Source: a virus
Lineage: Duplodnaviria; Heunggongvirae; Uroviricota; Caudoviricetes
Length of the DNA: 37,771 bases
Strand: one strand, 5' to 3'
IMG/VR virus record: IMGVR_UViG_3300026533_000003
Span: 1 to 37,771 of that record
In this document: piece after piece, positions 2,584-34,598 of the stretch
How positions within the stretch are numbered: position 1 is the stretch's first letter
Layout: each line of letters starts with the position of its first letter
The notes under the pieces: generated by a model
The model's database searches: none
What the model saw: only the letters and a program-made list of their open reading frames with translations
Told to the model about the DNA's origin: nothing
Program-made: the position numbers and the translations under genes

Positions 2584-2591
2584 GAGACATA

Positions 2592-2963
2592 ATGGAAGTA
2601 CCAACACACCCAGGGGCACAGCAACCTCAGCAACAGGCACCGGCTACCGGCGCTGACTTTTTTAGGCCTAGTGCTAGTCTAGCTGCTAGTAACCAGCAGA
2701 TAGCTCAGAAGCAGGCTCCTCAACAGGGGCTAGGAGCACCAGTACAGCCTCAACAACCTCAGGTAAGCCCAGAGCAAGTTCAGGCAGAGCAGATGGCTGA
2801 GGCTATCTCTAATGGCCAATTACAAGGTGATCAGCTACAGGCACTAGCTAATCAAGACCCAGCTATGGTACCAGTTATACAAGCTGCAGTTACAATGGCT
2901 GAACAGCGTAGGAAGGCTACAGAAGCTCAATACAACCAACAACAAGGTTTAGGGGAGTTTTAA
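2592..2963 (+). CDS. Gln/Pro/Ala-rich low-complexity hypothetical protein
   Basis: 123 aa; TAGGAG RBS overlaps the portal stop codon; composition is strongly Q-rich. Confidence 0.75.
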   Translation: MEVPTHPGAQQPQQQAPATGADFFRPSASLAASNQQIAQKQAPQQGLGAPVQPQQPQVSPEQVQAEQMAEAISNGQLQGDQLQALANQDPAMVPVIQAAVTMAEQRRKATEAQYNQQQGLGEF

Positions 2964-2992
2964 GGATACTGTAAGGTAGTACTTACTATAAT
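2960..2992 (+). promoter_or_regulatory. Putative promoter, TTAA-N8-TAAG-N11-TATAAT type
   Basis: TATAAT at 2987-2992 at the start of an intergenic gap; upstream TTAA 2960-2963 and TAAG 2972-2975 match three other promoters in the window. Confidence 0.6.
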
Positions 2993-3120
2993 CCGTCAAC
3001 TTATTAGCAGGAGCTACTAAGTAATAGATGATCTCCACAAGGGGATTCCGCCAAAGTCTGAAGCGGTTAAAAGCTGGTTACAAGAGGCAATGTGGTTAAC
3101 ACACCCTATGAGGACGTATT

Positions 3121-3501
3121 ATGGAACTAACTGATTTACAACAAGAGCTAAAGGCTATTGACAGTTTTATTGCTGAGAAGCAGAAGCTTATTAAGCGTGG
3201 TGAACAACTCAAAGAACTTATGAATAGTGAAGCTTTTAAAGCCGTTATTCTAGAAGGTTATATTGAGGAGGAATCTCGCAAGTTATTTGAATCCCTTACT
3301 AATCCAATGGGTGTGAGTGCTTATACAGAAGAGGAAACTCTACAACGTATGAGATCTATTAATCACTTCAGAGACTACGTAGGTACTAAGGACCATCAAG
3401 GTACAGTACTGGTAGATGCGGGTAAGGCTCCTATTGATATCATCAATGAGGAAGACCACCGTAAAGAAGTAACTGCTAAATATGCAGAGGATGAGGAATA
3501 A
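3121..3501 (+). CDS. N4 gp58-like head assembly protein (coiled-coil)
   Basis: 126 aa with GAGGA RBS; LMNSEAFKAVILEGY motif; syntenic between portal and gp57-like gene. Confidence 0.6.
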   Translation: MELTDLQQELKAIDSFIAEKQKLIKRGEQLKELMNSEAFKAVILEGYIEEESRKLFESLTNPMGVSAYTEEETLQRMRSINHFRDYVGTKDHQGTVLVDAGKAPIDIINEEDHRKEVTAKYAEDEE

Positions 3502-6239: not shown

Positions 6240-6965
6240 ATGCAATTACTAGAGATACTACGAACGGATAAATGGGTTACAAGTGGAGGTAAGAATACCT
6301 CAGCACCGATAGGGTTATTTGAATGCCCTTCGTGTAAGTGCACTGTTGAGAAAGTTAAACAGGCTGGTCTTAAGGCAAGAAGCTGTGGGGCTGCTACATG
6401 TAGGAAGGCTACGTTTCAAGCCAATCCTGACAACAGAGGCAATACGTCTATAGCACCAATAACTAAGATGCCTTACTACTCTGTACTTAAGGAGAAGTAC
6501 CGCTTGCTCAAGCAGACACACTCTTATGATAATTCAATAGGTACTTTTAAAAAGTTCTATGATTGCATCATAATTAGGTATACTGATATACGTGCTAACT
6601 CCGGTAAGGTGCGACTTACTGTTAGTGGCCCCACCGCCACAGTGGATACTATAAATGTAGAGGCTGTTAGTGAGCTTGCTAAGTACAAGAAGACTGGTGA
6701 TGAGAACTCTAAGTTCCTGTACCTTGTCGAGTCTCAAGGGTTTGTAAAGATTGGTGTAACTAATGATGTGCAAGGCAGAGTTTCAACCATCTCTACTTGT
6801 AACCCATTTGAAGTGAAAGTAATACTAGCACAAGAGGTAGGTAGTGCCTACCAAGTAGAGAAGTTCCTACATGATAAGTTTAAAGATACTAACGTTAAAG
6901 GTGAGTGGTTCAAACTTACCTCTAATGACATTGCTTACATCACGGAACATTTAAGTAGTCTCTAA
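6240..6965 (+). CDS. Free-standing T5orf172/MUG113-family (GIY-YIG-like) endonuclease with N-terminal Zn-binding motif
   Basis: C-terminal YLVESQGFVKIGVTNDVQGRV…EKFLHDKF…KGEWFKL; N-terminal CPSC…CGAATC. Confidence 0.82.
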   Translation: MQLLEILRTDKWVTSGGKNTSAPIGLFECPSCKCTVEKVKQAGLKARSCGAATCRKATFQANPDNRGNTSIAPITKMPYYSVLKEKYRLLKQTHSYDNSIGTFKKFYDCIIIRYTDIRANSGKVRLTVSGPTATVDTINVEAVSELAKYKKTGDENSKFLYLVESQGFVKIGVTNDVQGRVSTISTCNPFEVKVILAQEVGSAYQVEKFLHDKFKDTNVKGEWFKLTSNDIAYITEHLSSL

Positions 6966-15725: not shown

Positions 15726-16163
15726 ATGGGGTATGAAATAGTAAATGGTAATGTAGTATTTACGCAAGGAAACTCGGCAAATGCTGTACCAGATCTAAAT
15801 TCTGTACTTAAAACACAGACAGACACAGGGTTTAATATACCATCGCAGACTTACAAAGGCGTAAATGTAGGCACTCCTACAGAAGGTCTTGGCGTTCTAA
15901 ACGGTAACTGGTTTGGTGCTGGTGATGGATTCATGGGCGCACAGAACGACCTATTCGGTGGCAAGGATAGCATTACAGGACTTACTGGCTCAGAGGCCCT
16001 AAGTGGAATTGCATCTATAGGACAGCTGGGATTAGGGATATTAAACTACCAAGACACTAGTAGGTATAACGATAAAGTTATAGAAGGTCTTGACCAGAAT
16101 CTAGCTAACTCTAGACAGGAAGCTAAGTCTACTGCTGATTACCGTAGAAGCTACGGGCAATAA
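15726..16163 (+). CDS. N4 gp52-like internal virion protein
   Basis: 145 aa, Gly-rich, no Cys; LSGIASIGQLGLGILNY followed by a helical tail; synteny. Confidence 0.55.
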   Translation: MGYEIVNGNVVFTQGNSANAVPDLNSVLKTQTDTGFNIPSQTYKGVNVGTPTEGLGVLNGNWFGAGDGFMGAQNDLFGGKDSITGLTGSEALSGIASIGQLGLGILNYQDTSRYNDKVIEGLDQNLANSRQEAKSTADYRRSYGQ

Positions 16164-16165
16164 CT

Positions 16166-18136
16166 ATGGGATTTAAGGCACAGACTAACATCAATGTTGG
16201 GGGATTCAAAGACGCTACTGCTAGTGGGCAAAGAGCTTTATCTAGTATAGGTAACCAGCTCGACATGCGACGTAGAGAGCAACAAGCCCAGGCTAATATG
16301 GATAGAACACGTACTGACATGCTGACACAGAGAGACCTTGAGAACGAAAGAGCTAAAGTACTAGCAGATAGGAACACTACTGAGTATAACTACAAGGTTG
16401 CACAGAGAGATGCTATACCTGGACTACTTCAAGGCGATATAGTTAATAAGAATGCACAAGACTACACTGATAACTTCAATAGCCAACTAGCAGCTACACA
16501 GGCACCGGCACAGGCTAAGTATGACGCGGTACTTGCAGCCGGAGGGTCTCAGAAAGATGCAGAGAATGCCTTCACAGCTAGTATGGGTAAGCAAGGATTA
16601 GGTGGAGCTTATGTTAATAAAGATAACTTCAATCTAAATAAGATTGAGCAGGGTATGGGTACAAGTCTAAGAGAAGAGTACAACATACGTAAAGGTAACG
16701 CTATAGCTGCTAACAATCCTACAGCTGTTGCCGCTATCGAAGCTGATCTTGGTGCAAGAGTTAAGGCACAGGATGCTAGTAGAGCTGCTGCACTTAAAGC
16801 TGCTAATGATGTTACAGCTGAGACGTATAAGCAGAACTCAAAGGCTACACAGAAGACTATACAAGGAGCTACTAAAGGCACAAAAGGTACTAGTAAAAGA
16901 AGCTCTAAAGCCTCTGCTCTTGGTAATATAGGTAACCTTGATGCAACTTTCTCACAGACTGTTAAGGACGGTTATTGGTTCTCTAACAAAGATGACGCTA
17001 CCACTATGCAAACAACTCTTGCGTTAGCTGGGTATGATGCTAAAGAACAAGCTAATATAATGACCGCTTTGAATGATGACAATGAGTGGAGAGACGGTGT
17101 CTACGCTCCAGAGAGATTTCTATCTCCTAACGTGCTTGCTTTAAATGGTATGGTTAAGAAAGGGTTAACAGAAGCGCAGATTAGAGGTACTGGTATATAC
17201 GACAAGATTGCCGCTGAGAATAAAAAATATAATTCTAGTAATGGGGCTACTACAGGCACAGCAGGAACATCTGCTCAGACTGCTGCTAAGAATCAGGCTG
17301 CTATTAATGCACAGTATCGTAAAGAGTTGGCTGCTAATGCTAAAGTATTTGGTGGTACTGGTGCTAAGGATAGGGGAGCGTTAGGTACAAGTCTCACTAA
17401 AGAGTTTGACAACTTAGGTAGTAAGGCACCTACTCATCCTGGTAAGACTAAGGTTACTACTACAGCTCCTAAGCACCCTGGAAATAAGAGCACTACTCCT
17501 ACAGTTACGGCAGAAGACTTACTCGCTGCTCCAGGGCAAGTTACATTAGGTAGCGACCAACTAGGTAACAACTTAAATGTACTGCCACAAGGGTACTACG
17601 AGAATGACTTGGCTGCTCCTAATACAGGTACTGGTAGGTACGCTAATAGAAGAGGCACACAAGGTGTATTTAGTACAGTTAGTAGCTTACTTCCACATGG
17701 CCCTTATGGCAGCGGGAGAACTAGAGGTTTACAAGCCCCTACAGCTCCAGTAGCTGCTCCTATTGTTGAAGACAGTAATAGGTTAGCGCTAGATAACCCC
17801 AATGCTCGGTATAGTGCTGATGTTTCCCCAAGAGAACAAGCTGCTATTGCGGCTAGTAGAAATGAGAACAATGCTGCTTATCAGAGTAGGATGGCTATTA
17901 ATGCAGAGAGAGGGAGAGCAGTTGGTAACAGGGTTAATAACCTTCCAGCACAAGCACAGGTAGTTTCTCCTACGTTAGCGGATACGATGGCTAGATTACC
18001 AGTTGCCAATAGGGCTAGGGTAGAAGCTATTTCTAATGCCTCAGCAGGGTTAAGTGTTCCTCAGAAACAAGAGATGCTCAATGAGTTACTACAACTAGGT
18101 CTTACAGAAGAAGAGGCTAGAGCGGCTATTCAGTAA
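16166..18136 (+). CDS. N4 gp51-like internal virion / ejection protein
   Basis: 656 aa, A/G/T/N/Q-rich, no Cys; immediately upstream of the vRNAP locus. Confidence 0.6.
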   Translation: MGFKAQTNINVGGFKDATASGQRALSSIGNQLDMRRREQQAQANMDRTRTDMLTQRDLENERAKVLADRNTTEYNYKVAQRDAIPGLLQGDIVNKNAQDYTDNFNSQLAATQAPAQAKYDAVLAAGGSQKDAENAFTASMGKQGLGGAYVNKDNFNLNKIEQGMGTSLREEYNIRKGNAIAANNPTAVAAIEADLGARVKAQDASRAAALKAANDVTAETYKQNSKATQKTIQGATKGTKGTSKRSSKASALGNIGNLDATFSQTVKDGYWFSNKDDATTMQTTLALAGYDAKEQANIMTALNDDNEWRDGVYAPERFLSPNVLALNGMVKKGLTEAQIRGTGIYDKIAAENKKYNSSNGATTGTAGTSAQTAAKNQAAINAQYRKELAANAKVFGGTGAKDRGALGTSLTKEFDNLGSKAPTHPGKTKVTTTAPKHPGNKSTTPTVTAEDLLAAPGQVTLGSDQLGNNLNVLPQGYYENDLAAPNTGTGRYANRRGTQGVFSTVSSLLPHGPYGSGRTRGLQAPTAPVAAPIVEDSNRLALDNPNARYSADVSPREQAAIAASRNENNAAYQSRMAINAERGRAVGNRVNNLPAQAQVVSPTLADTMARLPVANRARVEAISNASAGLSVPQKQEMLNELLQLGLTEEEARAAIQ

Positions 18137-18180: not shown

Positions 18181-21100
18181 ATGGCAACACTACAAGACCT
18201 ATACAATAGCGAGGCATACACAAGTACTGCTTATATAGATAACCTCGCTCCAATTACTCCTACACTTTCACAACAAAAACAATCTAAACTAAACCGTAAA
18301 ACTATCGATAAGACTGCTAAGGTTGCACCTGAGTACACACAAGATGTACTAATTGGAATGCAAGATAGTGACAGCTTTAGGACAGGGCAGTTTGCTGCTA
18401 CAAGAACTAAGATACCAGGGCTAGATACCTATTACGACGGCATAGAAGGTGCTCACTACAAGGATGGTGTCCTACAAAGCGGGATAGACATACAGGGAGT
18501 AGATAAGCGTACTGGTGCTTACGGTAAGTCAGATAGAGTAATGTCCGCACAGAGAGAGTATGTGGCTTCCGTAGTAGGCAAGACAGCTGACACGGTAACA
18601 GAACAAGACTTCATTGATGTTTCTAACCAACAACAGATACAGAAGTTAGCTAACTTGGGTGGAGAGGCAGATTGGAAGGCACCGTTGATTAGAGGTGTAG
18701 AACCAACTAACCTTACAGGTACTTATAGAGATGAGAATGGTAACATAGTACAAGAGTCATTGAATGTTCCTATCCAAACTAAGAGCTTCGGTACTACTGG
18801 TAAAAGAGATTTAGTGGCCTTTGGGGATCAACAGGGGCTTGACGTAACTAGTATTGATGCCACTAATCCACAGATGAACCTGTATGCTGGTAACGTTCAG
18901 AACGAGCTTAGTGCAGGAGTACCAGCTTCAGATCCTACTAGCCCCCTTAATCAGTACTACCAGGCAGGACTGCAGGAGACTGATAATGGAGGAGCTAACG
19001 ATACTGATGGATACTTCGGTAACCTTGTAGATAACTTACAGTTCGGGTTAGGTAGAAAGGCAGCAGGTATTGCAGATGCTTTTGTTGACGCTAGCACTAG
19101 GGCTGTAATAGAAGGTGATAAGTATTTTAATGGGGTTACAGAGGAAGAGGCTGTCAAGAACATAGTAGACTCCTCGTCGTTGTTCGAAAGAGATCCTAAG
19201 ACTGGAGATTTTATAGGTTTCGATAAGTATAAGAAAGCCTCAGAGTATGGATACGATAACACTAGGGAAAACAACGCTATGAAGAGACTTGCCAAAGGTT
19301 GGGAAGAAGGGGATACTGCGGGTAAGGCTAAAGCTGTACTAGATGCTTTCCTTACAGCAGGGCCTAACTTTGTACTTAGTAGTGCTGGAGAGTTCCTTAC
19401 AGGCCCACTTAAAGGTTTTGGGCTTATGGCTAACAGTGCTGACTACGCTAACCAGATACTAGAAGATGTAAAAGGGGAAGTTACTAACGGTAGAAGAGCG
19501 GCTGCTATTACTGGCGGTTTTGGCATGGCAGTACTTAATAAGTTAGGAGCGGATGAGGCGCTAGGTAATACTAAGTTAGTACAGAAAGCTATCGGGGCAG
19601 TAATTAAGACGGGGTCAGAGAGTGCTGCTAGGAAGATGGCTAAGGATGTTGCTAAGTTAGCTTTAACTACAGTTGGTAAAGGTGCCTACGAAGGTATGGA
19701 AGAGGTTGCTCAAGAGGTAATACAGAAAGTAGTTGCTAAGTATGGCACTGATAAAGAGAAAGAGCTTTATGATGGTACACTTGGTACAGAGTTATTCCAA
19801 GCATTCGGCGCAGGTGCAGCAGCAGGTGGTAGTATAAACGTTGCTAAGGATACAGTACCAGCAGCTATTAAGCCTATTGCTAAAGCCACAGGGTACGTAG
19901 GAGGTAAGGTACTTGATGCAGGGGATAAAGTACTTGATAAGGTATTTAACAGTGGAGAGGATACTACTGACAGCAGCCAGGATGTTATTAAGGATAATCC
20001 TAATATAGACCCTACTGAGATCAGAGCAGCAGCAGAAGGACTACAGCCCTTAAACGTTAACCTTACTACAGCTAGTAAGAGTGATAATGCTAATACTAAT
20101 ATAGGGGTTGCAGATGATATTAACCCACAAGCTACAGCGGCAGTTGTAGCCAATGAGGCTATTAAGTCTCCTATACATAAGATAGTAGACCCTAAAGATA
20201 CTCCGGAAGTTTCTAAAGCTGCTGAAGAGTTCGACACAGTATTTGCTGAGATTGTTGCGGACCTTGCAGAAGGCGCTGCAGTACCAGTAGACCAGAGGGA
20301 AGAGTTCGGGCTACCTACTGATGAGGGAGAGTATGCTAACGCTTTTAAACAAGTTACAGCTGGAGCTATGGAAGATATCAATTCCGCTGTTGCTAAGTTG
20401 ACTAAGGCAGGTGCAGGGCCTAATAAGCTTAACGCAGTGGCTAGAAGGATAGAGGCACTAGTGCAGATTAAAGCAGCTAAGAACTCAGCTGACGTCAGGA
20501 AGGTTATAGAAGATGCGGGTACTGAGCAAGCAGTTAAGGTAAGAGCTATCCTAGGTAGTGCACAGTTCACTCCTAAAGAGATAGATACGTATATAGAAGA
20601 GAATGCCGAGGAGTTAGATGCTCAACAGAAGAAGCTACTAGTTGCTAAGAGTGCCATACTAAGCTCAGTTAAGAATGTTGGTAAAGAGAAGATACAAGGT
20701 GGTGGTACGTTGCCTGGTGTTAATCAGTGGATGTCAGTACTTGGACAGGATAAGACTTTAGATACTATTGCTAAGAGTAAGATAAAGAACTTCATAGGTA
20801 GCCAACGTAAGAAGCTTAGTGACTTCAAGGGCTCATTAGATGCTTGGGATATAGCTAACAAGATGCCTTGGACTTCTGAAGGGAAGGGCAACAAAGACTT
20901 CAACAGTAACATAGATTACAGTACACCAAACGCTAGAGCAGCGGCAAGGTCGTTTGCTATAAACTCTGGGAAGATGGAAGCTACCAATGAACCCGGCACA
21001 GTGGAGTACGGTGATAGCTCGTTTACAGATGTGCATAAAATAGCAGATATGGTAGAGACACTTACTGCAGAAGATAAAGCAATGCGGTTACTAGAGGATG

Positions 21101-21924
21101 CTTTTAATACATCATCAGAGGCACAGGAAGGTACCCAGGAGACACAGAAGAAGTCTACTGGTAAAAGTACTCCTGTTAAGGATACAATGCCTCCAGAGGC
21201 TTCTAAGGAAGCTATATCAGAGGGAGCTGTTAACCGTAAGGTATATGAGGCTCAAATAGCAGATCCAGAGGTCTCTAAACTTGAAGAGGCATATAAGAAA
21301 GCACCTGATGGCGAGAAATCTATAAATGCTGCTGACGCACTAACAGCTGCAATGGACAGGGTACGAGCTGAAGTAGAGGCTAGGTATGACATCATAGGTA
21401 GGGCTAAAGAAACTGCAGGGGAGAAAGAGCTTAGACTTAAATTAGAGGCTAAAAAGGAATCTCGTAAGGCCACTAAGGAAGTATTACCTACTGTAAAAGA
21501 AGTTGCTGATAAGATAGCAACAGGTAAGAAGCTTAGTGATGCAGACTTACAAGTACAGGATAACGGTGGTAAAGCTATTGAGGATATACTTAAGAAGCTA
21601 GCTGAAGCTAAAGCAGCTGAACAGAAAAAGAAGAAAGAAAGTAAACCCACAGTTGACAAAGTAGAAGAGAGTACAACTACTGATGGGTTAGAGCAGGCAC
21701 AAGCTGATGCTGACGAACAACAGAGGATGCATGAGGAAGACTTAGCTAATAAAGCTAAAGAAGCCAACACCCCTCAGAAAGTAACAGGTGTTACTAAGGT
21801 AAGTAAGGGTACTATTGCTGAAGTTAAAAAAGAAGCTAAAGATACCCTTGATGAACTTTCAGATCTAGAAGCATCATTACCTCCAGGGCTTAATAAAATA
21901 TTTAAAGAGGACTGTACAATATGA
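18181..21924 (+). CDS. Virion RNAP locus part A (equivalent to N4 vRNAP N-terminal/ejection domain)
   Basis: 1247 aa; Gly/Ala-rich amphipathic or hydrophobic segments (AAAITGGFGMAVL, FGAGAAAGG), EEVAQE motif, K/E-rich C-terminal linker; single Cys at 1245. Confidence 0.72.
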   Translation: MATLQDLYNSEAYTSTAYIDNLAPITPTLSQQKQSKLNRKTIDKTAKVAPEYTQDVLIGMQDSDSFRTGQFAATRTKIPGLDTYYDGIEGAHYKDGVLQSGIDIQGVDKRTGAYGKSDRVMSAQREYVASVVGKTADTVTEQDFIDVSNQQQIQKLANLGGEADWKAPLIRGVEPTNLTGTYRDENGNIVQESLNVPIQTKSFGTTGKRDLVAFGDQQGLDVTSIDATNPQMNLYAGNVQNELSAGVPASDPTSPLNQYYQAGLQETDNGGANDTDGYFGNLVDNLQFGLGRKAAGIADAFVDASTRAVIEGDKYFNGVTEEEAVKNIVDSSSLFERDPKTGDFIGFDKYKKASEYGYDNTRENNAMKRLAKGWEEGDTAGKAKAVLDAFLTAGPNFVLSSAGEFLTGPLKGFGLMANSADYANQILEDVKGEVTNGRRAAAITGGFGMAVLNKLGADEALGNTKLVQKAIGAVIKTGSESAARKMAKDVAKLALTTVGKGAYEGMEEVAQEVIQKVVAKYGTDKEKELYDGTLGTELFQAFGAGAAAGGSINVAKDTVPAAIKPIAKATGYVGGKVLDAGDKVLDKVFNSGEDTTDSSQDVIKDNPNIDPTEIRAAAEGLQPLNVNLTTASKSDNANTNIGVADDINPQATAAVVANEAIKSPIHKIVDPKDTPEVSKAAEEFDTVFAEIVADLAEGAAVPVDQREEFGLPTDEGEYANAFKQVTAGAMEDINSAVAKLTKAGAGPNKLNAVARRIEALVQIKAAKNSADVRKVIEDAGTEQAVKVRAILGSAQFTPKEIDTYIEENAEELDAQQKKLLVAKSAILSSVKNVGKEKIQGGGTLPGVNQWMSVLGQDKTLDTIAKSKIKNFIGSQRKKLSDFKGSLDAWDIANKMPWTSEGKGNKDFNSNIDYSTPNARAAARSFAINSGKMEATNEPGTVEYGDSSFTDVHKIADMVETLTAEDKAMRLLEDAFNTSSEAQEGTQETQKKSTGKSTPVKDTMPPEASKEAISEGAVNRKVYEAQIADPEVSKLEEAYKKAPDGEKSINAADALTAAMDRVRAEVEARYDIIGRAKETAGEKELRLKLEAKKESRKATKEVLPTVKEVADKIATGKKLSDADLQVQDNGGKAIEDILKKLAEAKAAEQKKKKESKPTVDKVEESTTTDGLEQAQADADEQQRMHEEDLANKAKEANTPQKVTGVTKVSKGTIAEVKKEAKDTLDELSDLEASLPPGLNKIFKEDCTI

Positions 21925-24900
21925 GTTGTAAACTAAGACAAATTGATGAGGCTATTGCTGTTACTAATAAGTCAGGCAGTGCTAAGAAGGCTGAGACCAT
22001 AAAGACATTAGAGAAGATGCGTGACTTAGCATTAATAGCTAACTACCAAGTTAATATTAGCTCAGTGGTTGTTGAGTCTGACAAGACAGTCGATGAGGTT
22101 ACAGCTGAGGCATTAGACAAAGACAACTATTACCAAGGTCTTGTGAAGGATGCAGAAGAGGCTAGAAAAGCTACTGACGCTTCTTATACTAAAGCTAAAG
22201 ACTCACTAGTATATAAGAGAGACGCTAAGGTTACTGATAGAGTTAAAGGTGATAGGAAGGAAGGCAAGGGAGTAGTAGATAGGGCTACAGTTAAGATTAA
22301 AGCACTCGGAGAAGAGATTGAGGAGTTACAGAGTTTTAATATTAGTTGGTACAATAAGATCCCAGGAGCTACTGAGGCAGAGAAGACGGTCTACAAGGGT
22401 AACATTGAAGGCCTTAAGACTAGAATCAAAAGTCTTAAGTTAGAGCAAGATGCCCTAATAGCTAGAAGGTCTGCTGCTGAGAGTAACAGCAGGACTAGTG
22501 CTAAGCTGTTTGATGAGGCTGAGGCTATTAAGAAGTCTAGTGCTGAGGCTCAAGCTAAAGTTACAGAGCATAGGATGACTTACTCTACAGCAGGTCAAGT
22601 TATACTGGAGACTAAAGTAGCTGGTACTAAGAATAAGAAGGCTGACTCAGAGATTGACGAAGTGTCACTAGCGGATTACTTTATAGCTTCAAATGTCAGT
22701 ATAGACTTACCAAATATGAAGGCTAGACTAGAGCAAGCTATAAACTCTAAAGAGGGAGATAGAAGCACGTACGCTGGTAACGTCGAGAAGGCAAGAGGCT
22801 GGGTAGTTGAGATGTTTGCCGGCATAAAGAAGTTTGCAAATGCACTGCCTCCAGTATTTAAGAACGAGGTAGCAGATGGCGGTGTAGAGGAAGGATACCA
22901 GAATATAGTTAGGTCTTCAACTTCGCAAGAGAGTTACAACAAGTACGGAGATACTAGAACAGAAATAAATGATACTTTAAACAAAGCAGCTTCAATAGCG
23001 TTTGTAGAGTGGGCTGCTAATATAGGTGGAGCTGCTAGGGCTAGTACTAGAAGTAACGATGACTCACTACGTATGTTGGGTAAGACTACGAAAGAGACTT
23101 TATCTACTTCAGAGAGAGATCTGCTATCACAGTTTGATGGAGTTGTTCCAGAGGCTGCTAGGATGATTGGTAGAGAAGCTATGAAGATGCTAGGACTTAA
23201 GGCTAAGGAAGGATCTACAGAGCTAGAGACTTCACAGTTCAAAGCTAAGCTAGAGATAGAGTTAGGGCTAATGGCACTGAAAGGTGCTGAGAAAGCTGGT
23301 ATTATAAAGCTTAATGATACTAAGGTAGACTTTAGTGAAGACATTAACAAGTTGCAGGAAGAGAATGCAGAAAGAGCGGCTACTAATGAAGACAATACTC
23401 TAGAAGATATTATAGCAGTTAGGCAAGGAGAATTTAGACCTGGGTATGCGATTATAACTTCAGCTATCTATGGTGACAAGACTACCGATAAAGGGACTAC
23501 AGCTACATTTAGTTTTACTAATGAAGAACACCCAATGCTTAATAGAGCAGAGAGTGCTGTCAGCGACCTTTTAACGGCACTAGGGGACACGAAGAGAACT
23601 ACAGGGTTACACTTATCACCAGAGAGTGCTGCGACTGCTAGGGACTCTATAGTGAACCAAGGTGTTAGTAATTACGTAGGAGATGTACCTGCAGTACAGA
23701 AGGATGCTATTATTAAGCAATCAGCTACAGCTAATTGGTTTGATGATGGGTACACTGAGATGTTGGATAAGGTATTAGAGGAGTCTGGTGAAGACACCTT
23801 TCTAGAGATGCTAGGGATGACTGATGAGAATGGTGCTTACGTTGAGGACAGAGCAGCTATCAGAGGTAAGAACGAGGCACTTAGGAGGTCTCTCAAGCAC
23901 CTACAAGATGCTAGAGAAGAGGTTGCTGCTTCAGGGCAGAACAATATGTGGTTTAAGTGGTACGTAGTTACTAATGGTAGATTTGGTATTAAGTCTAATA
24001 CCTTCAATATACAGGATCAGAAGCTTCATAGGAACTCAGTTAGTAATGCAGCTATTACAGTTGACACAAAACAGAAAGAAGAGTTCCTTAAGATGTCAAT
24101 GGCACAAGGCTTTGATATCAGTGTGGATAAGTTAACTAAGAAAGCTGCACTAGAGAAGTTTGATGCTTATGCTGAAGAGCTGGTACCTTATGTAGAGGCT
24201 ATTAACAATGGAGATAAGAACGCGTATACTAAGGCACTTAAGTTCGTAACTAGCTCTACAGGGGAACCAGAGCATGCAATGAGGGCACTATCAGAGTTCA
24301 TCAGTTACTATAACTGGAATGATAATGGGCGTAAAGGTAAGCTTATATCAGGAATGACATTAGAGACAGACGCTATTACTTCAGGGTATATCCTTAAGAT
24401 TATGCAAATGCCTATATTCTTAAAAGAAGATGGGACTATAGATATGGAGAAGGTCAAGCTACAGTTAGAGAAAGGTGGGGTATTTGACCATACTACTGAT
24501 GCTGATGGTAAGATGACTAACCCTACCTATGGTGAGTGGAAGATGAATAAAGAGAATAAGGATTCATACGAGACTGCTGGTAAGGCTTTCGGCGAGGAGC
24601 TAGCTAAGGCTACAGAGCCAGAGAATATGGTGTTTAGACTTGGTAAGGAGCACGGTAAGAAGAAGTATAGTGACCTCACAACTAAGCAGCAGACTTTTCT
24701 AGCTAAGATAGCAGAAGAGGATAAAGTCAAGACTCAGGCTATTATGGCTTTACTTGGGGAAGGTAATGTAGTTGACGGCTTTATAGCTATATCTAGGGCT
24801 TTTATGAAGAACCCTTTTATGATATTTAACTACGGTTCAGCTATTAGTTCTATCGTTAATGCTGAGGCGTCTAAGACTACTGAGAACATCTTTAAGAGGA

Positions 24901-26375
24901 TGACAGCTATTGGTAGAGAGGAAGACAACACGTCTCACACAGAGATTATCAATGCACTAAAAGCATCAGAGTACCAGCTCAGCAAGGATTTAGAAATAGA
25001 CCAGAAGGCAGCTAAGACCATTATTAATGGGCAGTTAGTAAACTTAGAGAAGGCTATTGAGGAAGGCGGTGATAAGGTATTAGAGCTGAAGTTCGATAAG
25101 AGAGTACTTGCAGCAGTTGAGGCCACAGCAAGGAATGTTATTAGTAAACCACTTACAGCTACATTTAAAAGTGAATATAGTGAGTATATGGAGGCCGGTA
25201 AGACTATTAATACGTCTATGGCAGTAATGGCTAAGGTAGCACTAAGAGCTCTTGATAAGAGGATACTAGAGGAAGTAGCTAAGAAGAATAAGGACAATAC
25301 AGGTAGAGATGCTAGATTAAGTCCTAAAGAGATTGATGCTTTAGTATTAGGTATGAGAGACGAGTTCCCAGTGCTTAACATGCCTTTAGGGGATGGGGAT
25401 GCTAGTAAGATTCTACTGATGAAGACAGCCCAAGGAAGTTATACACCAGATCATGAGTATAACGTTGAAGCTAGATCAGGGTTTAAAGACTTTAAGGGTG
25501 AGAGTAGTATGTACAAGCTAGTAGAGAGCTTTACTAGTGGTGCAGTTATCCCTATCCACTTTATGGATGGGTCTATTCAGTCAAGAGTTCTATCAATGTT
25601 CACAGCTTTAGGAGTACATGATGCTAACTTATTCAACTTGGAGAATATGGTTGAAGGTACTAAGGAGTACAACAAGGCTGCTATCGAGTTGGCTAAGAGT
25701 TACTCACTGTCTACAGAGGTAATGAATAGCTTTGTTGATACCCTTAATAAGGCTACTGCTGAGGACTTAGCAGCTATAGATACAATACACATGGAGCAGT
25801 TTATACGAAATATTGGTAAGTTTGAAGAAGGTTCTACTTACACAAATACTAAGTTGATAGATAAATCTATACAGAGACTTAAAAATAAACTAGGAGAGCT
25901 GACTGCAGAAGGTATCTTAGGTATAGAGGTTAAGGGTACTAGTAAGTCTGATAATTTTGTTAGAGATATACAGGCTGAGTTAGAGACTAAGTCTCCCACT
26001 ACTATAAGTGAAGCGTTTAGTACTGTTAAGAAACTGCAGGAGACTAGCGAAGAAGGTAGGTATCAGCTATTTAATAACAATGTGCAGTACATAGAACATA
26101 GTGCACTAGAAGGGGCTGGATATGTTACACCTGCCGAGGCTTACAGTAAGAAGGTGCCTAAAGAACTAGTTAGCAGTACCAGTAACTACTTAGGTACACC
26201 AACTGAAGGCACAGCCACTAAAGTAGCCACACAGTCACCACTTGACAATATAGAGGAAAACAGTAATAATACTGTAACTGAAACAGAAACCTCTAAGCAC
26301 TTAACACCTGATGAAATGCAATCTATGAAGGATGCTAACAAGAAGGCTGGAGAGAAGATCTGTAAGACTAAATAG
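21921..26375 (+). CDS. Virion-encapsidated single-subunit RNA polymerase, catalytic part B (N4 mini-vRNAP-like)
   Basis: 1484 aa; T/DxxGR-like TNGRF (~23970), motif A ETDAITSG (Asp codon 24369), motif B R-x3-K-x7-YG (RAFMKNPFMIFNYGS, 24795-24839), motif C GVHDA (Asp codon 25620). Confidence 0.9.
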   Translation: MSCKLRQIDEAIAVTNKSGSAKKAETIKTLEKMRDLALIANYQVNISSVVVESDKTVDEVTAEALDKDNYYQGLVKDAEEARKATDASYTKAKDSLVYKRDAKVTDRVKGDRKEGKGVVDRATVKIKALGEEIEELQSFNISWYNKIPGATEAEKTVYKGNIEGLKTRIKSLKLEQDALIARRSAAESNSRTSAKLFDEAEAIKKSSAEAQAKVTEHRMTYSTAGQVILETKVAGTKNKKADSEIDEVSLADYFIASNVSIDLPNMKARLEQAINSKEGDRSTYAGNVEKARGWVVEMFAGIKKFANALPPVFKNEVADGGVEEGYQNIVRSSTSQESYNKYGDTRTEINDTLNKAASIAFVEWAANIGGAARASTRSNDDSLRMLGKTTKETLSTSERDLLSQFDGVVPEAARMIGREAMKMLGLKAKEGSTELETSQFKAKLEIELGLMALKGAEKAGIIKLNDTKVDFSEDINKLQEENAERAATNEDNTLEDIIAVRQGEFRPGYAIITSAIYGDKTTDKGTTATFSFTNEEHPMLNRAESAVSDLLTALGDTKRTTGLHLSPESAATARDSIVNQGVSNYVGDVPAVQKDAIIKQSATANWFDDGYTEMLDKVLEESGEDTFLEMLGMTDENGAYVEDRAAIRGKNEALRRSLKHLQDAREEVAASGQNNMWFKWYVVTNGRFGIKSNTFNIQDQKLHRNSVSNAAITVDTKQKEEFLKMSMAQGFDISVDKLTKKAALEKFDAYAEELVPYVEAINNGDKNAYTKALKFVTSSTGEPEHAMRALSEFISYYNWNDNGRKGKLISGMTLETDAITSGYILKIMQMPIFLKEDGTIDMEKVKLQLEKGGVFDHTTDADGKMTNPTYGEWKMNKENKDSYETAGKAFGEELAKATEPENMVFRLGKEHGKKKYSDLTTKQQTFLAKIAEEDKVKTQAIMALLGEGNVVDGFIAISRAFMKNPFMIFNYGSAISSIVNAEASKTTENIFKRMTAIGREEDNTSHTEIINALKASEYQLSKDLEIDQKAAKTIINGQLVNLEKAIEEGGDKVLELKFDKRVLAAVEATARNVISKPLTATFKSEYSEYMEAGKTINTSMAVMAKVALRALDKRILEEVAKKNKDNTGRDARLSPKEIDALVLGMRDEFPVLNMPLGDGDASKILLMKTAQGSYTPDHEYNVEARSGFKDFKGESSMYKLVESFTSGAVIPIHFMDGSIQSRVLSMFTALGVHDANLFNLENMVEGTKEYNKAAIELAKSYSLSTEVMNSFVDTLNKATAEDLAAIDTIHMEQFIRNIGKFEEGSTYTNTKLIDKSIQRLKNKLGELTAEGILGIEVKGTSKSDNFVRDIQAELETKSPTTISEAFSTVKKLQETSEEGRYQLFNNNVQYIEHSALEGAGYVTPAEAYSKKVPKELVSSTSNYLGTPTEGTATKVATQSPLDNIEENSNNTVTETETSKHLTPDEMQSMKDANKKAGEKICKTK

Positions 26376-26383
26376 GAGTTTGT

Positions 26384-29300
26384 ATGGCTTGTAACAAGAC
26401 TGCGATAATTAAAGATATTGAGAAGAGAATAGCTAGGACACTTAAGGCTAAGAATACTGGCATGAGTAACGATGAGATAAGAGCCGTTGCTAAGGCTGAC
26501 GCTCCTAAGATGTTCAGAGAGATGCAAGAAGAGCAGATGGGTGATGCAGCTGACGCTAAAGAACTCAGTAAGCCAGAGATACAGAAGCTTAATGCAGCTA
26601 GACCACACGTAAAGCACACTAATGGTAACACTTACGTACCGGTAACAGTAGTAGGCAGAGCTAGTGATGGCAAGATTAACTACACATACCCTAATGGTGA
26701 TAAGGCCTACCCTATTGCTACAGATAAGGTCTTGCTTAAGGCAGGGCCACACGATACTGCAGCTTCGCAGATCGTAGATACAATCCCTTTATATAGTATC
26801 AGTACAGCTGCAGCCAATGGTGCTAGCAAGGATACTAATAGCGATAGAACAGTCACGATTAGTAAGGCAGTAACAGAGGCTAGAGCTAGGTATACAGCAG
26901 ACCCAAGTACAGATAATGCTAACCACTTAGCTAACGTAGAGGCTCTTAATGGATTAAGGAACTCATTTGGAAAAACTATAGCAAAGGGAGTTAGCCCTAG
27001 GAAGTTACAGAGTGCTAAAGACGCAGGAACTAAGGATGAGATAGAAGACTTCTACTTTGATGAAGATGGCAGTATGAGCAAGAGTGAGAATATAAACGCA
27101 GCCCTTACAGAGTGGGATAAGAAGAAGTACGGAGAGAACTTTGATGTAGAGCACAGCAAGGAACTAGGCGCTACTCTAGAAGCTATGGTTAACGCTATAG
27201 AAGATCTTAATAAGGCTGACGTTAGTATAACAGAGGCACAGCTTAGTAGTAGAGCAGCTAAAGGTGAATATTCTCCATTTGATAATACTATAGAGATACA
27301 TGTAGATTCTAGACATAATGGCGAGTTCTTTAGGCAGAGGTTCACACAGACAGCCCAAGAGGTTTATGTGCACGAGTTAGTACATGCTGCTACAGAGTTT
27401 ATCTTTGATGGTAGTAGGGAAGTACAGAGAGATCCTACTATAGCTGGTATGGTAGCCTCAGTTAAAGAGTTATATAGCTCAGCTAGGAAGGGATTAACTA
27501 GTTACGAAGGGTTGCTACCAGGGTATACAGATGGCAGCACTACTTATAGTGAGTACGAGGTAGCACAGGCTAAAGAGAAGTATGATTATATCTTCAATAA
27601 TAAAGAAGGTGTAGGGCTGGAAGAGTTCATGTCACACTTGCTTACTAATAAGCAGTTTAGACTTGCTATGAGTAATATCGATGCGATTAGTAAGGCTACT
27701 AAGGATGAAGATGCAGGGCTAATAGATAAGATTATAAATGGCTTTAAGGATTTCTTAGGAAGGTTAGTAGGGTTTACTACACATAAGAAGAATGCAAGTA
27801 TTACAGAGGCTGGTACAGATTTGTTATTTAAGGTAATGAAGGCACATAGTGATAATGCGATGAAGGTTGCTAGTAAACACCCTGCAAGAGTTGCTGAGAG
27901 AGCTACAGAGTACCTGGATGGAGTTCTAAACAAGAGTGATGAGAAGTTGGCAGGAGTTGCAGACACAGTAATTAGCACTGCAATGTTTGAGGGCACTGCT
28001 AGTAAGGTTGAGTACTATAAGCAATTAGCTGAAGATGTACAACGAGTTAAGGACAGTAAGGTTACAGACCCTAAGGAAGTTGAGAAGATTAAGAAGGCTA
28101 ATGAAGAGAAGATTGCTGAGAAGGAAAAACTCTTCAATGATATAGGTAAGCTATTAGGTAAGGTACCAGATAGGAATAGTAAAGAGTATAGGTCGTTAGT
28201 GGGTAAGTATATAGGGCTTGGTATTACTGCTGCAGGTATGCTTAAAGATCTATTTATATACGCTAGGATGCTTAATAAGTTACGAAAGTTAAAAGAGATA
28301 GACCCTAAAGGGTATGCACAGCGAATGGCTAAGCTTGACGGGTTTATTAAGAGAGTTGAGAAGAATGTTATAGCTAAGATACTTAAGGACTTTAGTACTA
28401 AGGATTTAACGTACAGTACTATGACTGATGCTATTTTGAAGTTAACACATGATGTTGATGCTATGAGAGAGAGTAATTATGAGGATGTACTAGGAGCTAG
28501 TAAGGAATGGTTTGGCAGGATTGAGGTTAATGGTGAGGCCTTTAGGAAGCAGAACGATGCCCTTAGCGACACGATCTTACGCACAGACATACAAAGCCTA
28601 GGGGTAGATTCTAAAGGGCTCCTAGAGCTTCTAGAGGACTCTGGTAAGGTGTACTCAGAGATTAAGGCATTGGCTAAGGTTATTAAAGATAAAGGGATGC
28701 TGGAGGATGCATTATTAGCAGCAGAGGCTATGGCAAGTGGTGGTGGATTGATAACAAATCCTACTAATATTGCTAGTGGCTTTGGTAGGGCTATTCAGTC
28801 ACCAGATCCTAAGATTGTTAAGGCCTTAGATAGATATATATCTTTAAAGGCTTTAGAACTTACTAGTAGTGAAGTTAAGAAGACTGCTGCTGATTTTATA
28901 AGTGGTAGGGATTATAAGAGAATTAGTGAGAGTAAATTAAGTAAGGCTGGTAAGAAGCTAAAGCTCATTAAAGGTAAAGAACCTATGACTCAGGATGAGT
29001 ACACAGCACAAGTACAGGAGGGGGTTAATAGCTTCCTTCAGCACTCAGAAGGTACTGATGCTAGATCTAAGGAAGAGATGACAGGAGAAGAACATAACCT
29101 TATTAAAGGATATATGAAAGAATCTTTTGATACTGGCAATGAGCTAGTGATTGTGCCACTTAGAGAGAGAGTTGACTTAGAGAAAGAAGGATATAAGTAC
29201 GTAAGGGATGTTAAAGAGCATAGGGAAGGTGCAGAGCCGTATGCAATCTTTACACGTAGAGACGGTAAGACTTCTAGAGCTAATGGAGCTATAGGACTGC

Positions 29301-30976
29301 AAGGAGTTAAGGCAAGAGGTGTTAGCCTATCAGCTATGATACATGAAGAGATAGAGAATGCCCCACTAGGAGAGAAGATAGATTACTTCCAAGAGACTGC
29401 TAAGTTTAAGAAAGAGTTAGCAATGCAGGTTAAGGAGTATAATAGAGATAGACTTGGTGCTGATATGCAACCAGTATATAACAGTAATGGTGATATTGTG
29501 GACTTTAGAACTAATATGACTCATACAGAGAAGAAAGAGTTATTAGATATGGAAACTAGAGGTACACAGAACTTAGCTAGGACGTATGGTACATTTGGGA
29601 CAGCTAAGGCGACAGAAGAGCATAATAAGAAAGTTCTGCAAAACATTAAGAATGATGCAGATAAGTTTGCTAGTTCATTGCCAGGGGACTACGTTACAAT
29701 TAGACCAAGAGCCGCGCTGGGTAAGGAAGACTTTGGATTAGAAGGAGTTGTGCCTAAAGATGCTACACAAGAAGAACAGCTATGGGCTAGGCTACCGGCT
29801 AGTACTAAGAAAGCTGCTGCTGATTTATATGATGGTGAGAACAAGATAATTATTAGAAGGGATTTAGTGTTACCAGCATTTGGTGAGAATGATTTATCAG
29901 TATCTGATAGCCCATTTGGCAGGTTCTTTAGTAAGGCGGGTAGAAGAAACATTAAGCAGATTGAGAACTACTGGCAAGATCTAATGCAGATAGCTAAGGG
30001 TAATATCGTTATTAAGGTACCGGCAGTACTTATTGGTAACGTGGTATCTAACGCTAAAATACTATTCTATCTAGGAGTTAATCCTATTAAGGGTACCAAG
30101 CTATTGTTTTTAGGTGCTAGGGAATTAAAGAGGTATGAGAGTGATAATAAGGAGCTACAAGAGCTTAAAAGGGTTGAGGGGCTAAGTAGGACTAGTAAGA
30201 GTAATTCAATCCGTATAGAGGAGCTAGAGGCATCTCTAAAGCATAATATGGTTAGACCATTGATTGACGCTGGTATGTACCAGTCGATTGTAGAGGATGT
30301 AAGTACTAGGAAGGAGACTAATAGAGTTAGTGAAAGAGCTAATAAGTTGGTAGATAAGTACGTTACTAATAAGGGAGCTAATACTGCGGTACAGTACTTA
30401 TTCCTTACAGAGAAGACTAAGCCGTTCCAAGCAATGCTTAAAGCTACACAGGTATCAGACTTCTACTTTAGGTTTGCACAGTACTATGATACCATAGATA
30501 AATTGGAAGCACAGGCTGAGAGTGCTAATGCCGGTAATAAAAATGATGAGAAAAGGTTACGAGTAACACTTGCTGATTATATTTATGATGGAATACCTTT
30601 TAAGACTAGAAGAGGTAATGTGTCAGAGGAATTAATGGATGCTATTAAGTGGCACTCAATGAGAGAGATTACAGATAACTACATTAACTACGAAGCTCCT
30701 CTTAATGATAAGGTTAGGTATTGGGATAAGATGAACCCAGGGTTCGTTAGGTACTACACTAATATCCAGAGAGTTATTAAGAAGATAGCAAAGAAGAGCC
30801 CGGGAAGGGTCGCTAGTGACTTTGCACTGCAGTTAGTAATTGGAGATACTGATGGTATCGAAGATCAGACATTTATAGAGAAAGGGTTAAATCCTTATAC
30901 GTTTAAAACACTAGGGATGATTAAAGAGGCTATTATACCTCCTGGTCCAGAAGTTATAATGGCTTATGCTCGTTAG
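26384..30976 (+). CDS. Virion RNAP locus part C (equivalent to N4 vRNAP C-terminal domain) with HExxH zincin-like motif
   Basis: 1530 aa, TAGGAG RBS; VHELVHAAT (27371-27385) plus downstream LEEFMSHLLTN; C-terminal DNYINYE…FVRYY…IQRVI resembles the N4 vRNAP C-terminus. Confidence 0.78.
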   Translation: MACNKTAIIKDIEKRIARTLKAKNTGMSNDEIRAVAKADAPKMFREMQEEQMGDAADAKELSKPEIQKLNAARPHVKHTNGNTYVPVTVVGRASDGKINYTYPNGDKAYPIATDKVLLKAGPHDTAASQIVDTIPLYSISTAAANGASKDTNSDRTVTISKAVTEARARYTADPSTDNANHLANVEALNGLRNSFGKTIAKGVSPRKLQSAKDAGTKDEIEDFYFDEDGSMSKSENINAALTEWDKKKYGENFDVEHSKELGATLEAMVNAIEDLNKADVSITEAQLSSRAAKGEYSPFDNTIEIHVDSRHNGEFFRQRFTQTAQEVYVHELVHAATEFIFDGSREVQRDPTIAGMVASVKELYSSARKGLTSYEGLLPGYTDGSTTYSEYEVAQAKEKYDYIFNNKEGVGLEEFMSHLLTNKQFRLAMSNIDAISKATKDEDAGLIDKIINGFKDFLGRLVGFTTHKKNASITEAGTDLLFKVMKAHSDNAMKVASKHPARVAERATEYLDGVLNKSDEKLAGVADTVISTAMFEGTASKVEYYKQLAEDVQRVKDSKVTDPKEVEKIKKANEEKIAEKEKLFNDIGKLLGKVPDRNSKEYRSLVGKYIGLGITAAGMLKDLFIYARMLNKLRKLKEIDPKGYAQRMAKLDGFIKRVEKNVIAKILKDFSTKDLTYSTMTDAILKLTHDVDAMRESNYEDVLGASKEWFGRIEVNGEAFRKQNDALSDTILRTDIQSLGVDSKGLLELLEDSGKVYSEIKALAKVIKDKGMLEDALLAAEAMASGGGLITNPTNIASGFGRAIQSPDPKIVKALDRYISLKALELTSSEVKKTAADFISGRDYKRISESKLSKAGKKLKLIKGKEPMTQDEYTAQVQEGVNSFLQHSEGTDARSKEEMTGEEHNLIKGYMKESFDTGNELVIVPLRERVDLEKEGYKYVRDVKEHREGAEPYAIFTRRDGKTSRANGAIGLQGVKARGVSLSAMIHEEIENAPLGEKIDYFQETAKFKKELAMQVKEYNRDRLGADMQPVYNSNGDIVDFRTNMTHTEKKELLDMETRGTQNLARTYGTFGTAKATEEHNKKVLQNIKNDADKFASSLPGDYVTIRPRAALGKEDFGLEGVVPKDATQEEQLWARLPASTKKAAADLYDGENKIIIRRDLVLPAFGENDLSVSDSPFGRFFSKAGRRNIKQIENYWQDLMQIAKGNIVIKVPAVLIGNVVSNAKILFYLGVNPIKGTKLLFLGARELKRYESDNKELQELKRVEGLSRTSKSNSIRIEELEASLKHNMVRPLIDAGMYQSIVEDVSTRKETNRVSERANKLVDKYVTNKGANTAVQYLFLTEKTKPFQAMLKATQVSDFYFRFAQYYDTIDKLEAQAESANAGNKNDEKRLRVTLADYIYDGIPFKTRRGNVSEELMDAIKWHSMREITDNYINYEAPLNDKVRYWDKMNPGFVRYYTNIQRVIKKIAKKSPGRVASDFALQLVIGDTDGIEDQTFIEKGLNPYTFKTLGMIKEAIIPPGPEVIMAYAR

Positions 30977-33915: not shown

Positions 33916-34257
33916 TTATAATTCTTTCATGCGTTGCATGGCAGCTTCTAGCCTTCTGCTGGCTTCGTCCATACGACGGTCTAGGTCGGTTTGGTGTTCA
34001 GTTGATTCTGGTTCATCATCATCTAGGGTTGGCAGCTTTACTTTTATAGGGAACTTAATTAGCCAAAGGCTGATTAGTGTTGATCCTGCTGTAGCACTTA
34101 TAACACCTAGTTGGGAGCCCCCGAATACTATGTTCAGGGCGACTAGCATTGCTATATCTATGACAATATCCATATACATCTTTCGTTTCCACTTGTACCT
34201 TATTAGGACAAATTGGAATAGTACTGCTAGCCCAAGTCCGAAGACTACAAATCCCAC
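33916..34257 (-). CDS. Small membrane protein (2-3 hydrophobic segments, charged C-terminal tail)
   Basis: 113 aa; FVVFGLGLAVLFQFVLI and IVIDIAMLVALNIVFGG; start overlaps the upstream stop. Confidence 0.65.
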   Translation of the reverse strand: MGFVVFGLGLAVLFQFVLIRYKWKRKMYMDIVIDIAMLVALNIVFGGSQLGVISATAGSTLISLWLIKFPIKVKLPTLDDDEPESTEHQTDLDRRMDEASRRLEAAMQRMKEL

Positions 34258-34598
34258 TAGTTACCTTTTAAGGCTTCCACATCTTTTAGGAGCTGGAATA
34301 GTTGAGCTTGTTCACCACAAGTTTCTAATTGAATAGAACCTGCTAGCACACCATGCATGAAGTTGTGGATATAGATGTCGAATGCTTCAAGTGGTGTTGC
34401 ACCTACTGTCGCAGAAGCGTCTGGTTCTGAGTCATTCTCTAGCTGGTCACAGATACAAGTTACATACCCACAGTCATGGCAGCGTTCTTCATAATAGGGG
34501 TCACCCGGTGTGTCCTCATTATGTGTTTCAGATGCTGCTCTGGCTTCTTTAATTACGTCGACTAGTGCTTGTAAAAAGTCGGGGCGTTGTTCTTCCAT
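34257..34598 (-). CDS. Hypothetical protein with CxxC-x4-CxC motif
   Basis: 113 aa; RCHDCGYVTCICD; AAGGA RBS upstream. Confidence 0.65.
   Translation of the reverse strand: MEEQRPDFLQALVDVIKEARAASETHNEDTPGDPYYEERCHDCGYVTCICDQLENDSEPDASATVGATPLEAFDIYIHNFMHGVLAGSIQLETCGEQAQLFQLLKDVEALKGN

Follow-up and report, generated by a model that had tools for sequence, protein, structure and literature searches.

Paired terminal cysteines at the junctions of a three-part N4-type virion RNA polymerase

The window analysed here is a stretch of 37,771 nucleotides, positions 1 to 37,771 of the IMG/VR record IMGVR_UViG_3300026533_000003 of a Caudoviricetes virus; the record runs to 101.8 kb, of which the window is the opening 37.8 kb, and is ~86% complete. 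Translation of its open reading frames (ORFs) with table 11 gave three consecutive plus-strand genes that encode a virion RNA polymerase (vRNAP) of the type known from phage N4, split into pieces A, B, and C. Piece A (18181..21924, 1247 aa) holds the N-terminal domain and has its sole cysteine at residue 1245, third from the C-terminus (ending KEDCTI), encoded by the TGT at 21913..21915. Piece B (21921..26375, 1484 aa) holds the polymerase (mini-vRNAP-like) domain and two cysteines, Cys3 (MSCK at the start; TGT at 21927..21929) and Cys1481, fourth from the C-terminus (ending KICKTK; TGT at 26361..26363). Piece C (26384..30976, 1530 aa) holds the C-terminal domain, and its sole cysteine is Cys3 (MACN at the start; TGT at 26390..26392). 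At the A/B junction the ATG of B overlaps the TGA of A (ATGA), and a plus-strand Shine-Dalgarno sequence for B, GAGGA (21907..21911), stands 9 nt 5' of this ATG, within the Glu-Asp codons directly 5' of the Cys codon of A. At the B/C junction 8 nt separate the TAG of B from the ATG of C, with the Shine-Dalgarno sequence AGGAG (26374..26378, plus strand) 5 nt 5' of that ATG. Beyond each cysteine of the window pieces only 2-3 residues remain.

Together A, B, and C comprise 4261 aa with four cysteines, all encoded by TGT. The interiors of the three pieces are cysteine-free, and the outer ends of the set, the N-terminus of A and the C-terminus of C, have none. The sequence-only reading of this DNA had listed the same four residues, with one cysteine on each side of each junction and none at the free outer ends; our recount agreed exactly, found no further internal cysteine, and placed the four TGT codons at the positions given there (21913, 21927, 26361, and 26390). 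The remaining 23 ORFs of the window have 50 cysteines in 7377 aa (0.68%). At this rate ~29 cysteines are expected in 4261 aa against the four observed (Poisson P(≤4) = 9e-9), and random placement of four cysteines would put one within four residues of each internal end with P = 1.9e-11. An N4-type vRNAP is a single cysteine-free polypeptide of ~3000-4400 aa; here we observed three ORFs, each with its own Shine-Dalgarno sequence and ATG, and four cysteines, all at most four residues from an internal end. The same reading had placed the C-terminal cysteines behind low-complexity linkers. This description fits only in part: the tail of B is T/E/S/N-rich, but in the relatives the ~12 residues that precede the cysteine follow a weak amphipathic pattern.

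Piece B matched PHROG 2206 (virion RNA polymerase) with E = 5.9e-80 over profile positions 764-2042, and piece C matched it with E = 1.3e-94 over positions 2590-3382. The Pfam domain N4_RNAP_helical reached 24 bits in B, under its 27-bit cut-off, and the precomputed Pfam assignments for B were PF21894 and PF21867. A hidden Markov model (HMM) of 18 fused, cysteine-free vRNAPs including N4 gp50, with 3188 positions, provided common coordinates; B covered positions 815-2042 of it and C positions 2049-3182. All 17 invariant columns of the catalytic-core alignment A1 were present in B. Piece A gave no direct match to PHROGs, Pfam, or the fused-vRNAP HMM; by phmmer it aligned collinearly to the N-terminal regions of A+B-type proteins, to that of a fused 3141-aa protein (locus L039), and to separate A pieces. 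Homology to the N4-type vRNAP was found for the N-terminal, polymerase, and C-terminal domains, and on this homology A, B, and C are identified as the corresponding parts. The identification as a split N4-type vRNAP, already made in the sequence-only reading, is thus borne out by PHROG 2206, the fused-vRNAP HMM, and the phmmer collinearity. Packaging in the virion and ejection into the host are what we infer from this homology and from the portal, capsid, and ejection-type genes nearby.

The cultured N4-like phages showed ~22% identity over the polymerase core, and the locus had no megablast match among cultured phages. Scanning viral contigs with a single-protein pattern recovered no relative, and a word-index protein search returned the query itself as its sole match. 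An exhaustive HMMER search with residues 285-1484 of B yielded 279 relatives, and cysteines were counted in the best 150 cluster representatives. These held 164 cysteines in 304,428 aa, 162 of them within 6-7 residues of an end. Representatives of about 3000-4400 aa had no cysteine, and those of the A+B type had exactly one, in the last 1-6 residues. B-only representatives had two, one in an MxC start and one at the end, and B+C-type representatives had one at position 3-6.

A scan of viral contigs with the core alignment gave 79 loci with 10-kb flanks. Junctions between pieces were listed from plus-strand ORFs, each taken from the first ATG of its stop-to-stop frame, blind to cysteine, and mapped to the HMM coordinates. 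Among the 60 distinct junctions the downstream piece had its own start codon in 53, and in every one of these 53 both facing sides carried a cysteine. The C-side cysteine lay in the last 1-7 residues, in 51 of the 53 junctions at 1-4 residues from the terminus; the N-side cysteine, counted from the nearest start, was residue 3 (38 junctions), 4 (11), or 6 (4). In chains of two, three, and four pieces the number of cysteines was 2 x (pieces − 1). The architecture was known for 64 loci: the 42 split loci all had cysteines (125 in 163,736 aa), and the 22 fused loci had none in 75,517 aa. N4 gp50 (3500 aa), gp51, and gp52 each had none, so the cysteine-free state that the sequence-only reading gave for the N4 vRNAP is correct. 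The check that had been proposed, that terminal cysteine pairs should accompany the split and be absent from fused homologues, came out as predicted. One cysteine per split-created end was found in the window, in the Alteromonas phage AD45-P1, and in all 53 genuine junctions; terminal cysteines were confined to such ends, on both sides, and none stood at a true outer N- or C-terminus. In the alignments of 22 homologous tails (position of B Cys1481) and 22 homologous heads (position of C Cys3) the cysteine was the sole invariant column. The comparative evidence shows that the paired terminal cysteines are under selection and work at the protein level, between the pieces, and not through the mRNA.

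Several loci appeared at first to break this rule. In L019 the downstream piece starts at a GTG and then reads MAC, and in L013, L018, and L020 a second Met gives the MxC start. In L035 and L045 the A piece sits 5' of an inserted Cys-rich ORF. The contigs of L031 and L034 end too soon upstream to show an A piece, and L087/P0028, on a contig of 4x coverage, has a VTC start followed by a frameshift. In the nearest relative of the window, L004 (8369-16834), the middle piece of 2821 aa has an internal Cys371 besides its two terminal cysteines, one of the very few internal cysteines in the family; in this piece the polymerase precedes a stretch of ~1400 aa that the fused-vRNAP HMM does not match.

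The pair was retained where the pieces were far apart. In nine loci, with seven distinct junctions (L019, L030, L035, L045, L049, L050, and L066), the pieces lay 187 nt to 5.8 kb from each other, with genes between them in all but L019. The A-to-BC distance was 1.8-3.5 kb in L030, L049, L050, and L066, and 5.3-5.8 kb in L035 and L045. Despite the intervening unrelated, partly Cys-rich ORFs, the distant pieces still ended in C-x-stop and began with M-x(1-4)-C. Over all junctions the gaps varied from 10 nt to 5.8 kb. In all 53 junctions an ATG or GTG belonging to the downstream piece itself stood 2-5 codons ahead of the cysteine, with an SD-like (Shine-Dalgarno-like) motif 5' of that start in 47 of them. 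The two Cys codons facing each other were identical in 44 of 53 junctions, against 44.8 expected from the 91.5% usage of TGT, and the codon after the cysteine matched in just five of 53.

At many loci, the window among them, the two codons ahead of the C-side Cys codon contain the downstream Shine-Dalgarno sequence (AAGGA or GAGGA, then TGT). The frequent K/E-G/D/E-C ending arises because the downstream Shine-Dalgarno sequence occupies those codons; this stretch was considered as a docking motif and rejected, as it largely reflects that signal. About a third of the junctions overlap as ATGA or TAATG, which suggests translational coupling.

Seven of the 60 junctions lacked a proper downstream start, and these served as natural negative controls. 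Six of them had no cysteine on either side; in the seventh, in L067, the only cysteine belongs to a frame that is unlikely to be the real one. The seven breaks were a 29-nt tandem duplication in L081, in-frame stops in L041 and L046, and overlapping-frame breaks in L044, L050, and, twice, L067. The three annotated vRNAP ORFs of Shigella phage pSb-1, gp101-103 (L083:38194-48982), were separated by frameshift-type breaks and lie in overlapping frames, with no cysteine and no proper starts, and they are probably one fused gene broken by frameshifts that are sequencing errors. The duplication in L081 (1960-2045, two mismatches) falls within the conserved KxPFMxFNYGSG motif of an otherwise fused, cysteine-free vRNAP; a mutation or an error of assembly would account for it. 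The representatives P0040, P0046, and P0052 begin at Met residues of this motif, and the contig L025 ends at it. For annotation, a pair of terminal cysteines can serve as an easy mark by which genuine splits are told from frameshift artefacts.

In the coordinates of the fused HMM the splits fell at ~730-870 (A/B junction of the window), ~920-1066, ~1273, and ~1940-2060 (B/C junction of the window). The common split sites coincide with the inter-domain linkers of the N4 vRNAP. The site at 1273 lies inside the polymerase region, in L084, whose pieces of 1619, 781, and 1252 aa have cysteines at −4 and 3 across the first junction and at −2 and 3 across the second. Splits were also seen at both ends of extra pieces, here called X (224-2110 aa), in the orders AB/X/C and A/B/X/C. 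In an IQ-TREE phylogeny built on the catalytic core, the A/B state changed 8 times and the B/C state 4 times; the tree was made by a quick method with some long branches flagged, and these counts are inexact and should be read as 'several'. The fused, cysteine-free L039 was sister to the split L027 and L028 (Shimodaira-Hasegawa-like approximate likelihood ratio test, SH-aLRT, 100), and all six phylogenetically independent contrasts paired the split with cysteine (p = 0.031, the minimum for six). A residue-level view of the split L027 against its fused sister L039 gave no alignment over the last ~37 tail and head residues, which were too diverged. Both splits of the window are shared by L004, whose core identity is ~50%. 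By analyzing these results it is shown that the end-located cysteine pairs are under strong, repeatedly renewed selection.

The N4 vRNAP has been described as three globular units on flexible linkers, 'beads on a string', which unfold to pass a channel of ~35 Å (PMC13434306), and the avoidance of cysteine in vRNAP, gp51, and gp52 has been ascribed to tail passage or to the oxidising periplasm (PMC3821669; PMC11445570). The pieces of the split enzymes are very probably joined end to end for injection, and we favour, as the probable explanation, head-to-tail disulfides that restore such a chain for ejection and are reduced in the cytoplasm, where the pieces separate. Each piece would be translated from its own start codon, and the vRNAP, carried in the capsid, would enter the host by ejection before the DNA. 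In the window, A-1245 would pair with B-3 and B-1481 with C-3, most likely by a disulfide formed inside the particle or in an oxidising medium. Since the cysteines stand a few residues from the chain ends, the cross-linked product would be almost linear and would regain the chain continuity needed for threading through the ~35 Å tail channel. The reducing cytoplasm would then cut the links and the pieces would separate, as the light chains of two-chain toxins do. An even number of cysteines, placed only at facing ends and always within a few residues of the terminus, is what is expected if a disulfide stands where the peptide bond is missing and the chain is kept nearly linear. A pre-formed disulfide is also the one state of cysteine that an oxidising compartment cannot trap. 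The amphipathic pattern in the relatives, hydrophobic at −3, −7, and −10/−11 before the tail cysteine and at +2, +5/6, and +9 after the head cysteine, is weak; speculatively, it would fit two short helices that pair and are closed by the S–S bond. A complex prediction for the last 160 aa of B with the first 300 aa of C (22-row alignments) scored 0.11, below the mark, and was counted neither way.

Several points weigh against the disulfide. The chemistry of the S–S bond, the timing of its formation, the threading rationale, and the reductive release are all what we infer. The report on the AD45 vRNAP is silent on whether its gels were reducing (PMC3821669). Assembly takes place in the reducing cytoplasm, so the co-packaging of pieces without the C-terminal encapsidation domain would depend on their associating non-covalently or on an oxidation step. 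In the 101.8-kb record (~86% complete) no member of the thioredoxin or glutaredoxin families was found; Erv1/ALR was not found in it either, but the Erv1 control also gave no signal, and this result is uninformative. Apart from the weak amphipathic pattern we found no conserved docking motif that would account for the choice of partner in chains of three or four pieces.

Other explanations for the facing cysteines were compared with the disulfide. One is that the splits are errors of assembly or gene calling and the terminal cysteines a coincidence. A 2023 survey treated split vRNAPs as calling errors or read-through, with hits of <2500 aa discarded or split ORFs concatenated (PMC10654107), and some 'split' records are truly of the frameshift type. 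However, the artefactual breaks are exactly those without cysteine, the window junctions have a canonical stop, Shine-Dalgarno sequence, and ATG, L004 shares both splits, and the stop codon of AD45 was re-sequenced. We rejected the artefact, which is extremely improbable. A true single chain, made by a ribosomal hop between the Cys codons, by post-translational ligation, or by trans-splicing, is also highly improbable. A hop would by its nature have the same codon at take-off and landing, and the four TGT codons of the window are all followed by A; yet over the junctions the identity of the Cys codons is no higher than expected and the next codon rarely matches. The retention of the pair at separations of 187 nt up to 5.8 kb excludes ribosomal hopping or programmed bypass, which the downstream pieces' own starts and SD-like motifs also contradict. 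Ligation would not leave the two polypeptides found in AD45 virions, and the candidate of a split intein or trans-splicing was dropped, as no Hint or other such Pfam domain was present in A, B, or C. With hopping and peptide ligation excluded, what is left is a bond or other contact of the two thiols with each other.

Two further alternatives were weighed. The facing residues could hold a metal or cluster between the pieces (such as a shared Zn, Cu(I), or Fe-S site) instead of forming a disulfide, for which it can be said that paired interface thiolates are also typical of inter-subunit metal sites and that the comparative data show pairing, not chemistry. Each side has one cysteine, though, with no other conserved ligand in either alignment, and a metal site leaves the strict placement at the ends unaccounted for. 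Two-coordinate metal sites are rare, and Fe-S clusters are unstable in oxygen-exposed particles. We regard a metal bridge as unlikely. It is likewise improbable that each terminal cysteine works for its piece alone, or binds a third partner (through capping, modification, or attachment to another virion component), with no mutual bond. From the comparative data alone, pairing and a parallel requirement at every new end look the same, but the cysteines occur only at ends created by a split, always on both sides and never at the true outer termini. The neighbouring ejection proteins, the obvious third partners, are cysteine-free, and unpaired thiols would clash with the otherwise absolute avoidance of cysteine.

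The window also encodes an N4-type portal and a major capsid protein. Two small cysteine-free ORFs precede the vRNAP on the plus strand, of 145 aa (15726..16163) and 656 aa (16166..18136). By position and size only, the first is N4 gp52-like, two genes 5' of the vRNAP as in N4, and the second resembles the ejection protein N4 gp51. Pairwise BLAST gave no similarity of the 145-aa ORF to N4 gp52 or of the 656-aa ORF to N4 gp51, and the latter had no PHROG match; operons of the N4 gp51/gp52/vRNAP type are strongly divergent, and their members are recognised by position (PMC11445570). Piece C has an HExxH-type motif, HELVH, at residues 330-334 (27371..27385, plus strand), and a similar HE..H stretch was seen in many C pieces of alignment A3. 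A zinc-binding motif has been predicted in the C-terminal part of gp71 of Pseudomonas phage DEV (PMC11445570), and the HELVH of piece C may correspond to it. The most Cys-rich ORFs of the window lie at 6240-6965 and 34257-34598 (minus strand), with 241 aa and seven cysteines clustered at residues 29-54, and with 113 aa and five cysteines at 40, 43, 48, 50, and 94; both may encode metal-binding proteins, and their cysteine content contrasts with that of the cysteine-free ejection genes.

X pieces, placed between the polymerase and C-terminal pieces with a cysteine at both ends, were observed in several lineages: L087:6374-9481, L005:9528-10652, L007:12595-13677, L014:12878-13552, L022:12676-18327, and a 2110-aa piece of L047. 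The one of L087 (1035 aa, VAC at the start and ending NKCK) gave SF1-helicase-type Pfam matches (AAA_19, AAA_30, and UvrD_C_2); the others matched no family, and in a Pfam search of four extra X pieces and three inserted ORFs no match passed the cut-offs. Unrelated ORFs of 434-1424 aa lie between the A and BC pieces (L035:4084-8358, L045:4350-8342, L034:724-4758, L030:6340-8211, and L066:6291-7595); several are Cys-rich (8-12 cysteines), and none of the inserted ORFs has a Pfam match. The X pieces may be co-injected cargo. A broader idea, that terminal cysteines are a general modular coupling by which any Cys-capped protein could join the ejected chain as a 'carriage' and be released by reduction, is possible but somewhat doubtful. 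If true, the X pieces would be enzymes or effectors injected together as cargo, and the system a natural redox-cleavable concatenation of proteins passed through a phage tail; as cargo they would represent a new phage route to co-inject enzymes and a template for redox-cleavable concatenation.

The junction rule brings a natural experiment to the question of how N4-like phages package an enzyme of 3500 residues, thread it through a tail of ~35 Å, and reactivate it. By implication of the rule, the chain has to be continuous, or at least covalently tethered head to tail, until delivery and not afterwards; the rule also marks the inter-domain linkers as places where a two-atom bridge can stand in for continuity. 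This prediction is testable in the culturable phage AD45-P1.

Among the closest known cases are the Alteromonas phages vB_AmaP_AD45-P1 to P4, whose genome is also ~100 kb. The AD45-P1 vRNAP consists of a 2481-aa upstream piece with its only cysteine at 2479, 3 residues from the end, and a 1409-aa downstream piece with its only cysteine at 4; the two face the junction as in the window. The B/C split, just after the polymerase domain, lies at the same place of the fused HMM, with matches that end and restart at 1983/2050 in AD45-P1 and at 2042/2049 in the window. AD45 differs in that A and B are fused, with no cysteine at the A/B position. Garcia-Heredia et al. (2013, PMC3821669) sequenced the AD45 stop codon again and saw the vRNAP on gels as two polypeptides, of 270 and 175 kDa, which means that the pieces are not joined by a peptide bond. 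The authors mentioned 'two cysteines' as a sign of probable non-injection and did not remark on their positions (PMC3821669). Compared with N4 gp50 and other Schitoviridae vRNAPs such as DEV gp71, the window has the same domain order (N-terminal, T7-like single-subunit polymerase, C-terminal), a location downstream of two small cysteine-free ORFs, a structural block with N4-type portal and capsid genes, and cysteine-free interiors. The N4 and DEV enzymes are one chain of 3400-3500 aa with no cysteine, whereas the window has three chains with cysteines at the internal ends, and the genomes of cultured N4-like phages are ~70 kb against the ~102-kb record here. In the bypassing of T4 gene 60, matching codons also flank a gap that contains a stop, but here the downstream pieces have their own starts, the gaps run from 10 nt to 5.8 kb, and codon matching shows no excess.

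In two-chain toxins the catalytic chain is held by a disulfide to a translocation or anchor chain, is passed unfolded, and is freed by reduction in the cytosol. Diphtheria and clostridial neurotoxins resemble the vRNAP pieces only in how they work, by a disulfide-held catalytic chain (proposed for the vRNAP), a narrow channel, and release in the cytosol; there is no homology. The toxins derive from one precursor nicked by a protease, with an internal disulfide, whereas the vRNAP pieces come from separate genes with cysteines at their extreme ends, and the bond is only proposed. The arrangement had been thought undescribed. This stands for the junction cysteines and a disulfide-linked vRNAP, of which the searchable full-text literature (of incomplete coverage) gave no description, but not for the two-piece vRNAP of AD45 or the cysteine-free vRNAP, both already published. 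The N4-type vRNAP, its cysteine-free state, and the two-polypeptide enzyme of AD45 are already known.

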